Below are positions 22,055 through 26,160 of a stretch of DNA of 64,000 nt, in pieces (positions within the stretch are counted from its first letter, which is position 1; every line of letters starts with the position of its first letter). This DNA is from Acidobacteriota bacterium (lineage in GTDB: Bacteria > Acidobacteriota > UBA890 > WLXD01). Made by a program: the position numbers and the translations under genes. The notes under the pieces are model-generated. The model made no database searches and was not told the origin of the DNA. It saw only the letters and a program-made list of their open reading frames with translations. The DNA lies in the NCBI GenBank assembly GCA_965205505.1, contig CBDBHB010000007.1, positions 256,001-320,000 on the forward strand, given 5' to 3'.

Positions 22055-24250
22055 TCACCCGGTCTCCGTCACCCGCAGGGAGAGCAGGCGCACCGCCTGT
22101 TGTTCCGCTGCCACATCGACGATCTTCAGCTCGACCAGGTATTGACCCGGATCCAGATCGGGCAACGGCAGCACACCCTCGTGGATACCCGGGTAGGCAA
22201 GCGGCAGGGCCGTTAGCGAAACCGTTGCGATGGGTGCGTTGACCCCCTCGCGACGAACCGTGAGCGCGACCTCCGGGCTGGCCGCACCACTGACCTGCAC
22301 GCTCGTGGCAAGCTGAAGGCCGGCACGAACGGCCGAGGTCACCAGCGGCCGGAGCATCCTGGCTTCGGTGTCCAGGGCAACGAGCATGGGATCGGCGACG
22401 AGCCAGCGATCCTGGCTAGGCGGCACCTCGACCTGCAGCCTGGCGGTGCCGATGCGATCGCCCACTTCCTCACCCACGAACATGCGCACGTCATAGACAC
22501 CCGGGTCCACCTGGAATTGCCTCACGTAGTTAAAGAATCGTGCCGGGTTCGCTGTGGACGGCGTTCCTTCCGCAGCCTCAGGTGCCACTGTCGTATGGAA
22601 CTCTCCGCGCAGCTCGCCGACACTACTGTAGGCGACGGCGTGCACCTGGAAGCGCGAGATGCCGAGTCGCTGAACCATCTGCTCGTCCATCCCCGATTCA
22701 GCGTCGCCGGTCCCGAAGGCGGGCGCCCAGCTGCCGCGGACCGTCTCCTCCTGTCCCGGCAAGCCGATGACCAGGAAGATGCTCGAAGAGCCGTCTGCGG
22801 TGAATCGATGGAGCGCTTGCGCCGGCACAGGTCGACCCGCCACGGACCCCGGAAACGACAGTGCGGCAGTGACCTCGCGCTTGATCCGTTCCAAAGCCGG
22901 CTGCTCCCGGTACCCCGGGCGCGCACGCACTTCGGCGGCCGGAACGTCGACCCGGACCTGGATCTCGTGGTACTCGCCGTCCTCGTGAGGTTCCGGCGGC
23001 TCATAGAAGATCATGTAGAACTGCGTCGAGTCGACGTACTGCTCCTGGAAGGCGCGGTCGAGATCGGCCCAGCCGATGAACGATCGGCCTCCCGTGCTAG
23101 CCGCTACCTCCGCCAGTGGAGCCGTCAACTGGGCATACGCCGGGCGTATGTTTCGCCGCAGCGCCCTGCCCACCTGGTTATCTCCGACCGCTGCCCGGGT
23201 GCCCAGCGAACCGAGCTCCGAGATCGGTCGAGGGTCGATGGTGTAGATGCTGACGTTGCCGCTGTTGGCGGCCTCGATCAGAGTGGCCATCAGTTCGAGC
23301 GCCCTCTGGTCGGGCGATGACCAGGTTGTGAGGGTCGAGCTGCCCATACCCGCGGCCACGACCTCCTGCACTGTCGCGGCAAAGGCGCCGAAGGGTCCGC
23401 TTTCGGTGATCATGACGCCCGACGAGATCCACACCAGGGCCGTCCGGCCCTCCATGACCGAGAGGGCATGGGTAAGCTCCGTGAGCTGACGCAACGTGTA
23501 CCCGAGACGCTGTCGCGCCAGCTCGCCATCCCTCTTCGCCTTTTGCTCCGCGGCCCGGACCACTTCGCGGACTTTGTTCGACGAACTCCCAGGGCCGTTC
23601 AGTACAGCGAGCGCGGCCTTCATCATGGGGTCGTACTCGCGGCCTATGCGATCGAAGATCGAGTCGCTCGACGGCCCGGCGTCGATCACCAGCTGAGCAG
23701 CGTTCCGCAACGTATCTCGATCGGTGGTCAACGGTGCCAGCTGGCGCAGCGCACCGCCGTCGCCGAGCATGAACACGCTGCGCGGGACCGCCAGATCCCC
23801 CTCTCCCTCGAACAGATCTCGGAACGCCTCCGCCAGCTGTGGATAACCAACCCGATCAAGGCTCGGCTGATCGACGAAGTAGACGATTGCTCCGAGGGTG
23901 GCAGCGCTCCACATATCGGGAGTCGGCCCACTCGAGCCACGAGAGCCGACGCTCGTGACCCGTCCACTCTCCACGCGGACCAGCTGAACGCCGGTAATCT
24001 CCTGCACGACCCCGTCTTCGAGCAGGCGGAAATCCTCTGCTGTCAGGTCGTCGATGAAGTTGTCGTCGCCGTCGGTGACCACCGTGTCGACGCGGACGCG
24101 GGTGACGGCGGAGCGGAACTGCGTCGGCTCCTGCAGCAACAGGTGCCGGGCCTCAGCATGCGAACCAACGACGGCGACGGTCGACAGGCAAAGACACGCC
24201 GCCGTCAGCGCGAGCGCCTTGAAACGCGCCGAAACCAAGACTTTATCCAT
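22055..24250 (-). CDS. Acidobacterial VWA-related domain protein
   Basis: Signal peptide; FRSAVTRVRVDTVVTD...DLTAEDFRLLEDG, IYTIDPR, TGGR, DGEYHEIQVRV, VRARPGY. The ORF-track extension into the IS is spurious. Confidence 0.82.
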   Translation of the reverse strand: MDKVLVSARFKALALTAACLCLSTVAVVGSHAEARHLLLQEPTQFRSAVTRVRVDTVVTDGDDNFIDDLTAEDFRLLEDGVVQEITGVQLVRVESGRVTSVGSRGSSGPTPDMWSAATLGAIVYFVDQPSLDRVGYPQLAEAFRDLFEGEGDLAVPRSVFMLGDGGALRQLAPLTTDRDTLRNAAQLVIDAGPSSDSIFDRIGREYDPMMKAALAVLNGPGSSSNKVREVVRAAEQKAKRDGELARQRLGYTLRQLTELTHALSVMEGRTALVWISSGVMITESGPFGAFAATVQEVVAAGMGSSTLTTWSSPDQRALELMATLIEAANSGNVSIYTIDPRPISELGSLGTRAAVGDNQVGRALRRNIRPAYAQLTAPLAEVAASTGGRSFIGWADLDRAFQEQYVDSTQFYMIFYEPPEPHEDGEYHEIQVRVDVPAAEVRARPGYREQPALERIKREVTAALSFPGSVAGRPVPAQALHRFTADGSSSIFLVIGLPGQEETVRGSWAPAFGTGDAESGMDEQMVQRLGISRFQVHAVAYSSVGELRGEFHTTVAPEAAEGTPSTANPARFFNYVRQFQVDPGVYDVRMFVGEEVGDRIGTARLQVEVPPSQDRWLVADPMLVALDTEARMLRPLVTSAVRAGLQLATSVQVSGAASPEVALTVRREGVNAPIATVSLTALPLAYPGIHEGVLPLPDLDPGQYLVELKIVDVAAEQQAVRLLSLRVTETG

Positions 24251-24427
24251 GATCGAAGAGTACTTTGCGAACGACCCATGACACAGTGCCCTGCGACGGA
24301 TATCTGGCCAACCGGCTGGGCGGCATCTAGATGAGATGAGAAGGCCAACCTCCTGAACGCAGTAGCCTGACGGCTCTGCAAACGTTTCTTCAAACGTAAC
24401 GGGCTCGAAGCCCAAGGAGGTTGGCCG

Positions 24428-25470
24428 ATGACAAGTGTAACGATTGGACTGGACGTAAGCGACCGGTACAGCCGTATGTGCGTGCTCGACAGTAAGGGCA
24501 GGGTGATGGAGGAAGGGCGGGTGAGGACGAGCCCGGAGGGGCTGGCGAGGCGGTTCGGGTGCGAGGAGCCCGCTCGAGTAGTGCTGGAGGTTGGAACGCA
24601 CTCGCCGTGGATGAGTGAGCAGTTGAAGCAACTGGGTCATGAGGTGCTGGTGGCTAACCCGAGGCGGCTGAAGCTGATCTATGGCGAGCACGGACCGACC
24701 GGTTGGATGCCGAGCACCTGGCACGAGTGGGCAGAATGGACCCAAAGCTGCTTAAGACGGTGCAGCATCGAGGCAGACAAGCGCGAGCGGATCTAGCCGT
24801 GATTCGGAGCCGAGATGCTCTGGTAAAGAGCCGCACGCAGTTGGTGAGCCATGTGCGTGGTGCGGTCAAGTCGGCCGGTTGTCGTATTCCCAGGTGCTCG
24901 ACGCCGGCGTTCGCGCGCACCGCGCCAGAGCACATACCGGAGCGGCTCAAGGGAGCGCTCGAGCCGGTGCTTGAAACGATCGCCATGCTGACGGGCAACA
25001 TCCAGCAATACGAGCGTCAGATCGTGCAGCTGTGCCAGGGGCGATACCCGGAGACACAGCAGCTCCAGCAAGTGGCCGGGGTCGGAGCTCTGACCGCACT
25101 GGCGTATGTGCTGACGCTCGAGGAGCCGGAACGGTTCAATACCTCCAGAGCCGTGGGCCCGTACCTGGGACTGAGACCGAAGAAACGGCAGTCGGGGGAC
25201 AAGGACCCTGCGCTACGAATAACCAAGGCGGGCGACAAAATGCTCCGACGCCTGTTGGTGGGCTCGGCGCATTACATCCTGGGCCCCTTCGGGCCCGATA
25301 CTGAGCTCAGACGCTGGGGGCTCAAGCTGGCCGGACGCGGTGGTCCTCATGGCAACAAAAAGGCAGCAGTTGCTGTCGCCCGTAAGCTCGCCGTTGTGCT
25401 GCACCGACTGTGGCTGAGTGGAGACGAGTACGAACCGTTGCGCGCACCTGTAGAGGTTTCAGCAGCATGA
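24428..25470 (+). pseudogene. IS110-family DEDD transposase/recombinase, frameshifted at ~24690
   Basis: TIGLDVS, VVLEVG, (K)TDRLDAE split by a frame change, GVGALTA, YLGLRPKKRQSG, AVAVARKLA. Confidence 0.92.
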
Positions 25471-25716
25471 ACTAACTCGCAACCAGGAGGTCGGTAGGGC
25501 GACGCGACCCAACGGTTATCGATCTGACCGCCCGGTCCGGGCGACTGCGAAGGTCACTACGAGCTTCGAGCTCGGCAGCTAGATTGCAGCGCCTCGAATC
25601 GGGACGGACCCCAGAATGCACCGGACGACCTGAATCCTCGTCCACCAGAGTGCGAATAGGAGCATGGCGTGCAGATCGATTCTTCGCTGGCCACCACATT
25701 GCCCTTGACCGAACTA
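25471..25716 (+). ncRNA. Putative bridge/seekRNA region of the IS1111-type element
   Basis: Stem CTGCGA/TTGCAG enclosing AGGTCACTA, the hairpin CGAGCT-TCG-AGCTCG and GCAGCTAG; the two loop arms match the target strands. Boundaries approximate. Confidence 0.7.
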
Positions 25717-25730
25717 GGCCTTCTCATAGA

Positions 25731-26006
25731 AGTGGCCTGAGTCAGAGGTTCGTTGCATATTGCTGGGACGAGATGGGGGCAAGCTCAAGGCGCGGAGAGG
25801 AAGGCGATGCAGTGGGTATCGTCGACGAGGCGCAACGCCGATATCGCCCGCAACTGCCCATCTGTCCGGAGGATGGCGGCGAAATCGGCCCGTCTGCGGC
25901 GTTGCTCCTCCTCGAAGATGGGCAAACATCGTCTCGTCGTCGCGCCTGGCATCCGGACCCATTTCGCCACCACGATACGCAACGATCATCTGTTACAGGC
26001 CACTAG
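25731..26006. mobile_element. MITE-like element copy 1 (degenerate TIRs, CTAG ends), left terminus interrupted by the IS
   Basis: (CT)AGTGGCCTG...CAGGCCACTAG; internal motifs GAGGAAGGCGATGC and ACGCCGAxATCGCCCGCA are shared with 63430-63708. Confidence 0.72.
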
Positions 26007-26062
26007 TTCGGCCGACGATGCACCACTGCCATGTTCTCTGAGAAGGCGAAGGGACTCCTCGA

Positions 26063-26160
26063 CCTAGTCGGGTACCGGGTTCCATGGCGCTCCCCGAAGG
26101 GTGTCGGTTAGCGCGTGAAGCCTCCAGGCACAGGAAACGAGATCCAACATCAGGAGCCCG
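26063..26160 (-). repeat. Kinase promoter/start-module copy E (MEPGTRLG, then no kinase)
   Basis: CCTAGTCGGGTACCGGGTTCCATGGCGCT...GAGATCCAACATCAGGAGCC. Confidence 0.75.

Follow-up and report, generated by a model that had tools for sequence, protein, structure and literature searches.

An IS1111-type insertion sequence of an Acidobacteriota bacterium and its probable two-armed RNA guide to the ends of a miniature transposable element

The window analyzed here, a stretch of 64,000 nucleotides from an Acidobacteriota bacterium (GenBank assembly GCA_965205505.1, contig CBDBHB010000007.1, positions 256,001 to 320,000 of the forward strand), contains at positions 24331-25732 an insertion sequence (IS) of the IS1111 type within the IS110 family. 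The element lies on the plus strand and is 1402 bp long including its right-hand AG core, its ends having been set by comparison with empty sites. As judged from sequence comparison, it is very probably a member of the IS1111 group in which a two-armed RNA guide specifies a 10-bp landing site at the end of a miniature inverted-repeat transposable element (MITE). The mechanism itself is known, having been described in 2024; the element is clearly a new example of the seekRNA or bridge RNA kind, and was set beside the published systems by their text descriptions. A first-pass annotation of the same DNA had already read the locus as a programmable guide with decodable specificity. That interpretation is supported by the protein family, the insertion site, the fold and the covariation with targets, and every coordinate on which it was built (target halves, stems, arms, the motif ATAGGAG and the inverted repeats) was correct on re-reading of the sequence; what had to be cut back is the reach of the 3' arm, of which only CUAG is supported.

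The element is bounded on its left by AG (24329-30), and its own last two bases are likewise AG (25731-32). The left subterminal inverted repeat, ATGAGAAGGCC (24336..24346, plus strand), starts 5 nt inside the left end, which reads ATGAG (24331-35), and the same end structure is found in relatives from other genomes; the right repeat, GGCCTTCTCAT (25717-27), is followed by AGA and then by the core AG (25731-32), so that this end occupies 25717..25732 of the plus strand. The two repeats are perfect over 11 bp, and the terminal extensions measure 5 nt, or 7 and 3 nt when the core is counted on the left, which confirms the spacing of about 7 and 3 nt recognized at first pass as typical of IS1111. 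Non-coding DNA is distributed unequally, with 246 nt downstream of the gene (25471-25716) versus 81 nt ahead of the start codon, counted from the left repeat. The element thus shows the traits of the IS1111 group, namely subterminal repeats of 7-17 bp with short extensions and a longer non-coding region 3' of the gene.

The assembly that holds the window (5.98 Mb, 9 contigs) contains 28 full-length copies at 98-100% identity, plus fragments. Insertion is site- and orientation-specific, with one orientation in every copy, and AG comprises the only repeated bases, there being no duplication beyond the core. Two copies have small changes in the element's own first bases: of those at C9:2702238 and C6:103356 of this genome (G000), one carries an extra ATGAG at the left end (CTAG-ATGAG-ATGAG-ATGAG) and the other a T>G change at the second base of the element. 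A lone left-end fragment of 95 bp (G000 C9:2875347-2875441), which looks like an internally deleted remnant or a miniature derivative, lies at a CTAG site and is directly followed by TTCTCATCTAG.

The transposase gene (24428..25470, plus strand) is broken in the window copy, where it reads as two overlapping open reading frames (ORFs; 24428-24796 and 24703-25470), both of which match halves of IS110-family transposases. This copy lacks ACAA after 24692, a 4-bp deletion inside the catalytic K-T-D-x-x-D-A motif that is shared by 12 of the 28 copies, and the gene is intact, with 348 amino acids (aa), in 10 of the 28. The first-pass proposal to repair the frameshift before assaying recombination is therefore needless, the deletion being specific to certain copies. 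An intact protein, P0001 (348 aa), was taken from the copy at C7:9916-11321. It scores 205.5 bits on the model NF033542, "IS110 family RNA-guided transposase" (cut-off 140), and matches PF01548 (1.1e-17; DEDD, RuvC-like N-terminal domain) as well as PF02371 (5.7e-17; C-terminal domain). The available text of Siddiquee et al. 2024 (PMC11187229) characterizes the IS1111 group by a GL-P----S(T)G motif and a transposase length of 330-350 aa, and P0001 agrees with both, its GLRPKKRQSG being the GLxPxxxxSG motif of the IS1111 type. The protein is distantly related to the solved recombinases of ISCro4 and IS621 (for IS621, E = 5.9e-8 over the C-terminal half). It should be added that the 12 copies that share the ACAA deletion lie at different loci and on mosaic backgrounds of other variable sites; possible explanations are dead copies that were mobilized in trans and spread as a lineage, gene conversion, or a mixing of repeats in the assembly.

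The sequence into which the element is inserted consists of a left half, CGGCATCT-AG (24321..24330, plus strand), in which AG is the core dinucleotide and only CTAG (24327-24330) is common to the insertion sites, and a right half, TGGCCT (25733..25738, plus strand), which represents the first bases of the terminal repeat of a MITE (AG-TGGCCT at 25731-25738). The target that the first-pass annotation had rebuilt by removing the IS was observed directly, as CTAGTGGCCT occurs unoccupied at 109 places of this genome and CTAGTGACCT at two. Most of these unoccupied sites are ends of the MITE family. The member next to the IS (25733..26002, plus strand) is 270 bp long, has the inverted ends TGGCCTGAGTCAG ... 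CTGTTACAGGCCA and is flanked by CTAG on both sides; the family as a whole has a length of about 270 bp, where homology ends, inverted ends of the form TGGCCTG(TAA/TAG/AGT)CAG, CTAG on both sides, and no fewer than three diverged subfamilies, the queries for which gave 40-79 BLAST hits each. Genome-wide, its ends read TGGCCTG...CAGGCCA, and there are also some minimal palindromes of 17 bp in which two ends are joined end to end. A search between ends paired within 4 kb, the paired sizes being 17-614 bp, revealed no autonomous partner of the MITE; the family may be IS630-like, with TA duplication, or IS5-like, with CTAG duplication.

The copies agree closely in what surrounds them. The left flank ends with CTAG in 27 of the 28 copies and with TTAG in the remaining one, and a flank logo of the 28 copies has C at -4 in 26, T at -3 in 27, A and G at positions -2 and -1 in 28/28 each, and no preference further left; the right flank starts with TGGCCT at 30 of 31 right ends and with TGACCT at one. 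The insertion sites are thus related to the arms of the proposed guide in practically every copy. When sites with AG followed by TG(G/A)CCT are compared, CT at -4/-3 is present in 27/28 occupied versus 111/368 unoccupied ones (Fisher p = 1.4e-12), and among TAG sites C is present at -4 in 27/28 occupied versus 111/178 unoccupied ones (p = 1.4e-4).

The proposed guide lies in the non-coding region downstream of the gene. The target-binding module (25531..25603, plus strand) has an outer stem composed of CCCGGU/AUCGGG, GGCG/CGCC and CUGCGA/UUGCAG, an internal loop, and an inner hairpin at 25560-25574. The minimum free energy (MFE) fold of 25531-25603 has -35.8 kcal/mol (z = -4.11), and none of 200 shuffled sequences was as stable. 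In this fold the outer stem is formed, the inner hairpin has 6 bp (25560-74), and the two arms lie on opposite sides of the internal loop. The stem-loop that had been drawn at first pass (25545-25589), with the halves CTGCGA (25545-50) and TTGCAG (25584-89) and the arms AGGTCACTA (25551-59) and GGCAGCTAG (25574-82), hence folds as proposed, its CUGCGA/UUGCAG stem being part of the predicted structure.

The 5' arm, which in the RNA reads AGGUCACUA (25551..25559, plus strand), would act as the right target guide. It is perfectly complementary to TAGTGACCT, and it pairs with TAG|TGGCCT of the top strand, from -3 to +6, with a single rU-dG wobble at +3. The 3' arm, complementary to the bottom strand, would act as the left target guide; since the inner hairpin ends with G25574, the free arm is GCAGCUAG (25575..25582, plus strand), of which the insertion sites support only CUAG (25579-82). 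The claim that each arm matches its target strand at eight of nine positions and spans the core consequently stands for the 5' arm, with the U-G wobble, whereas the 3' arm is one base shorter than had been thought and is not selected for at -9 to -5. In this genome, 246 nt are expected to contain 0.02-0.03 9-mers with at most one mismatch to one or the other target strand, and when the non-coding region was shuffled 5000 times, both arms turned up in this order within 60 nt twice. The segment 25478-25596, which includes the loop, is identical in all 28 copies. Neither variant guide loops nor orphan copies were found in this genome, where a search with the scaffold pattern gave 31 loops with identical arms in all cases, and two unrelated matches. 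The site that is read is, according to these alignments, the 10-bp CTAG|TGGCCT, as AGGUCACUA (-3 to +6) together with CUAG (-4 to -1) would specify it, and recognition reaches as far as the arms do.

Relatives of the element allowed the guide to be compared with targets of different sequence. Protein searches revealed relatives of 47-58% identity in 18 genomes of a sample of 400 others from this phylum, an order-level search only one broken relative of 63-68% identity (G006), a scan of GTDB contigs with a single protein one relative of 43% identity in a metagenome-assembled genome of the Myxococcota, and metagenome contigs six more of 51-60% identity. Both end motifs were present at 23 of 30 loci, where they have the form core (AG, or AA in two species), AT(G/A)GG and ATGAGAAGGCC on the left and GGCCTTCTCAT, (A/G)GA and core on the right, while the flanks all differ. 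The scaffold CUGCG-arm-hairpin-arm-AU(U/G)GCAG occurs in relatives of 47-68% identity from 15 other genomes. In full, the 3' scaffold of the relatives reads GGGCGA-CUGCG, about 10 nt, a hairpin, about 9 nt, and AU(U/G)GCAG-CGCCC, followed further downstream by GGACCCCAnnAUGCAC, a hairpin, AGAGUGCG and nAU(A/G)GAA(G/A)C.

For counting pairs, 18 sequences from 16 genomes were aligned. The alignment comprised elements with end motifs and scaffold, so that L071 (G351, 1991 bp) and L075 (G370, 1787 bp), which have no scaffold in their last 330 nt, L065 (G166), L077 and L033, which have no end motifs, and L063 and L070, which are cut by contig ends, were left out; L084 and L073, near-duplicates of L074 and L083, were in addition left out of the permutation test. 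RNAalifold predicted three helices. Paired cells amounted to 93.5%, versus 27-47% in controls in which the partners had been slid by 1-3 columns, and compensatory changes were present at 10 pairs, versus 1-2 in the slid controls; none of 500 shuffles reached the observed measures. The conserved stems contain 22 G-U cells, including U-G in 13 of the 18 sequences at one pair, and therefore favor RNA of the transposase-sense strand.

The covariation of arms and targets across homologs, which had been suggested as a check, was examined by scoring the loop columns of the alignment against each element's own flanks and against those of all other elements, with 20,000 permutations. For the 5' arm, the score with the own target was 8.03, versus 4.34 (standard deviation 1.25) with the others, and the own target ranked first in 10/16 cases (ranks 1,1,1,1,2,4,6,1,1,1,5,1,1,3,6,1). 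The 3' arm yielded 6.87 versus 3.95, with the own target first in 8/15 cases (ranks 1,2,1,13,2,1,1,3,9,1,11,1,1,2,1). For either arm, 0/20,000 permutations reached the own sum, and thus the arms change with the targets. Some ties in rank are due to half-targets common to related elements. When the last 300 nt were scanned without restriction, the own target came first in 9/16 cases. The correspondence can also be read in individual elements: in L088/L089, from metagenomes, where the flanks are CAGAC-AG|AGCCTAGT, the arms accordingly read ACUAGGCUC and CAGACAG, and L091 is a further clear case. The closest relative compared, G006, was not informative in this respect, as its arms are not clearly more diverged from those of G000 than is the rest of the RNA (7/10 and 4/8 versus 96/122 positions identical), and no retargeting can be read from this pair alone.

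Several relatives have peculiarities of their own. L071 and L075 have the same ends as the other elements, and passenger DNA may separate their RNA gene from the right end. In L078 (G268), the 30 nt after the right end are identical to a stretch of the element's own non-coding region, which suggests an insertion into, or a tandem arrangement with, a partial copy of itself; its 5' arm does not match these 30 nt. The right end of L091 reads CATAGA-TG at the junction, while its left junction and its internal motif imply an AG core; this may represent a mismatch between donor and target core that was fixed on one side.

The covariation bears on an explanation that needs no guide at all: the choice of target might rest with the protein alone or with the inverted repeats, and the 3' region might be an ordinary untranslated region that matches the target by chance. 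Such a view gains something from the facts that the 3' arm is effectively only 4 nt long, that CTAG occurs twice in the 246-nt region, and that the RNA is a prediction. However, the rarity of both arms in shuffled sequences, the compensatory changes in the stems, and the way in which the loop positions track the targets of the relatives all disfavor it, and it is considered extremely unlikely. In another conceivable version, the loop works not as RNA but as the element's own DNA in single-stranded form, and target recognition is DNA-DNA pairing like that of the guide sequences of IS200/IS605. Sequence data alone cannot separate DNA from RNA, and the minus strand of the loop region indeed folds comparably. 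Nevertheless, the 22 G-U cells would turn into C-A mismatches if the opposite strand were used and would be weak in DNA, the single mismatch between arm and target is also a U-G wobble, and a protein of this family binds such RNAs according to the accessible part of PMC11187229, so that a DNA guide, too, appears very improbable.

In a different kind of alternative, which concerns the target's right half, the conserved flank on that side, TGGCCTGTAACAG..., could belong to the mobile unit itself; IS and MITE would then form a composite and no specific right target would exist. Of the 31 right flanks, 24 do continue as a recognizable repeat, as a composite would. But the same repeat end follows CTAG at 109 places where there is no IS, the repeat has at least three diverged subfamilies whereas the IS copies are 98-100% identical, and the remaining 7 of the 31 right flanks depart from the strict pattern of the MITE terminal repeat past +6/+7, one of them merely by a 1-nt insertion. 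The empty sites thus refute the composite, to which next to no credence can be given, and the right flank is not part of the IS.

Some observations weigh against the proposal of an RNA guide with two target arms, or limit how far it can be taken. The fold of the minus strand has z = -3.48, not far from that of the sense strand. The preference for CT at -4/-3 and for C at -4 is confounded with the MITE context. The left flank from -9 to -5 gave no sign of selection for GGCAG, the mean number of matches out of five being 1.79 at filled and 1.67 at empty sites; consequently, only the CUAG of the 3' arm is demonstrably read, and the 8/9 match of the window copy to GGCAGCTAG owes four of its matches to luck. 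A scan with Rfam, which covered 24000-26100, gave no match over 25471-25732 at E up to 10, although Rfam 15 may hold no model of IS1111 seekRNAs; the remaining matches, all of them elsewhere, were at chance level. In one study, four metatranscriptome libraries yielded contigs (X1-X4) that cover 24327-25760 piecewise and in the ACAA-containing form; from contigs of this kind neither transcription nor ends nor strand can be read, and no joined-end (circle) junction was seen among them. In the permutation test, the own target was not at the top in 6/16 cases for the 5' arm (G090, G302 and G262 being misses) and in 7/15 cases for the 3' arm (G388, G334 and G217 being among the misses), and the 3' arm had three poor ranks, 9, 11 and 13. 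In G334 and G217, multiple copies reveal that the left flank itself is variable, like that of the window element. Most relatives are single-copy, and their flanks are thus single observations. Lastly, the 5' side of the second module described below matches the element's own left end (ATGAG) at only 4/7 positions.

The second module (25606..25663, plus strand) is proposed to be the donor-binding part of the RNA. It consists of GGACCCCA (25606-13), a stem formed by UGCAC (25617-21) and GUGCG (25650-54) with an inner hairpin, and AAUAGGAGC (25655-63), and its stem is conserved and paired in the 18 aligned sequences. The motif AU(A/G)GAA(G/A) after this stem is identical to the seven bases with which the element ends on the right in 17 of the 18 sequences, and it tracks both the A/G variants and the AG/AA variants of the core. 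In the window element, AUAGGAG (25656-62) agrees with the terminus ATAGAAG at 6/7 positions, and the differing G could still form a wobble pair. The weak resemblance noticed at first pass is therefore a conserved feature and better supported than had been thought; most simply, the motif would guide the RNA to the bottom strand at the right end. On the other side of the stem, a conserved CCCA is complementary to the TGGG of the usual left end, and a few variants covary (CCUUA/TAAGG in G129, CUCA/TGAG in G090); this strand is no more than a candidate guide for the left end.

Both modules may be parts of one long guide RNA, predicted at 25518..25680 (plus strand) and closed by a long-range helix of 9 bp between AUCGAUCUG (25518-26) and CAGAUCGAU (25672-80). 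This pairing is present in the MFE fold (z = -2.4), where it encloses both modules, and in G006 a different complementary pair, CGACCC/GGGTCG, was read by eye at the equivalent places. The RNA of about 163 nt could then be a complete two-module bridge RNA, in which the strands flanking UGCAC/GUGCG read both donor ends, AUAGGAG the right end with the core and ACCCCA the left end. The element would exist in an imperfect state, its guide forming a U-G wobble with the main target and mismatching the left end of the element, and the 28 near-identical copies would imply that such imperfections are tolerated. This is a tentative proposal, which is quite possibly correct but stops just short of being favored. 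If it is true, the second module would give a function to the "long seekRNA", the role of which was left open by Siddiquee et al., and the tolerance could define the minimal pairing that is needed, that is, a left guide of 4 nt.

Taken together, these features would fit the following mechanism. In an active element of the IS1111 group, the 3' non-coding region would be transcribed with the transposase gene and processed into a seekRNA or bridge RNA. Its internal loop (25551-25582) would present the two guides, the pairings of which overlap at the AG core, while the downstream module, in which AUAGGAG copies the right-end terminus and the core, would most likely hold the donor ends. The DEDD/serine recombinase would then exchange strands at AG between the target and the joined ends of an excised circle, the junction of which would read ...CTCATAGA-AG-ATGAGATGAG.... 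Together the guides would specify CTAG|TGGCCT, a site supplied about 136 times in the genome, mostly by the CTAG-flanked ends of the 270-bp MITE, and the IS would therefore land in a safe harbor and in a fixed orientation. RNA production and binding by the protein, strand exchange at AG, the circular intermediate and a junction promoter are steps that we infer. With respect to the promoter, a hexamer resembling a -35 box, TTGACC (25705..25710, plus strand), lies just inside the right inverted repeat, and CTTGAC is kept 6-7 nt ahead of this repeat in all relatives whose 3' regions were compared. By analogy with the junction promoter of ISEc11 in the available part of PMC11187229, TTGACC is a candidate for one half of a promoter that would be completed only when the ends are joined.

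This picture agrees well with what has been published on the group. In the portions at hand of PMC11187229, IS1111 RNAs are derived from the 3' non-coding region, co-purify with the transposase, and have forms of about 70-100 nt and 145-170 nt; their top-strand complement lies 5' of the bottom-strand complement, the two matches overlap, and the seekRNA can be reprogrammed if the donor flanks are changed as well. Similarly, the accessible text of Durrant et al. 2024 (PMC11208160) places IS1111 bridge RNAs in the right end and includes the core in both the left and the right guide. ISEc11, ISKpn4 and ISPa11, as far as they are covered by the same text of PMC11187229, resemble the window element in having a transposase of about 340 aa with GLxPxxxxSG, subterminal repeats, a long non-coding region downstream, the same order of guides, and arms that overlap at the insertion point, and changes in the arms naturally retarget related elements. 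The sizes predicted here, about 73 nt for the target module and about 163 nt for the long form, compare with their RNAs of 70-100 and 145-170 nt, and the scaffold was likened to IS1111 seekRNAs by text description, not base by base. The differences are that the target is a MITE end plus CTAG, that the left guide has an effective length of 4 nt, that the right guide contains one U-G wobble, and that the guide was here read from sequence.

The bridge RNA of IS621 (structure 8WT6), as far as it is described in the available text of PMC11208160, likewise has two guides per loop, one long and one short (9 + 4 nt, versus an effective 9 + 4 nt here), and a separate donor-recognizing part. In contrast to the window element, IS621 is of the IS110 type, its RNA lies in the left end, the order of its guides is reversed, and its core is CT rather than AG; furthermore, the donor-like segments found here would flank a stem-loop instead of lying inside the loop of their own hairpin, provided that they have been read correctly. 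An IS1111-type element that uses the terminal repeat of another transposon as a specific and oriented landing site is known, and the window element is alike in this respect. It differs in that its host element is a 270-bp MITE and that its site straddles the flanking CTAG and the first bases of the terminal repeat.

The known mechanism is not changed by an RNA-guided IS that exploits MITE ends as a safe harbor. The genome nevertheless contains a natural experiment that few described IS1111 elements offer, in that one guide sequence can be compared with 28 occupied sites, 109 unoccupied cognate sites and 257 half-sites. The effective reach of the guides can be read from these sets of sites, from -3 to +6 for the right guide and from -4 to -1 for the left guide. 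In addition, the relatives, which share a scaffold but differ in their arms, could serve as a panel, drawn from an environmental lineage of high GC content, with which programmable recombinases might be selected or engineered.

As to the surroundings of the element, an ORF of 896 aa that was listed on the minus strand across the IS was rejected as a read-through artefact. A large protein with a signal peptide is encoded on the minus strand, its ATG being at 24250-24248, and IS and MITE together lie some 80 bp upstream of this start codon (window 24248-24330).

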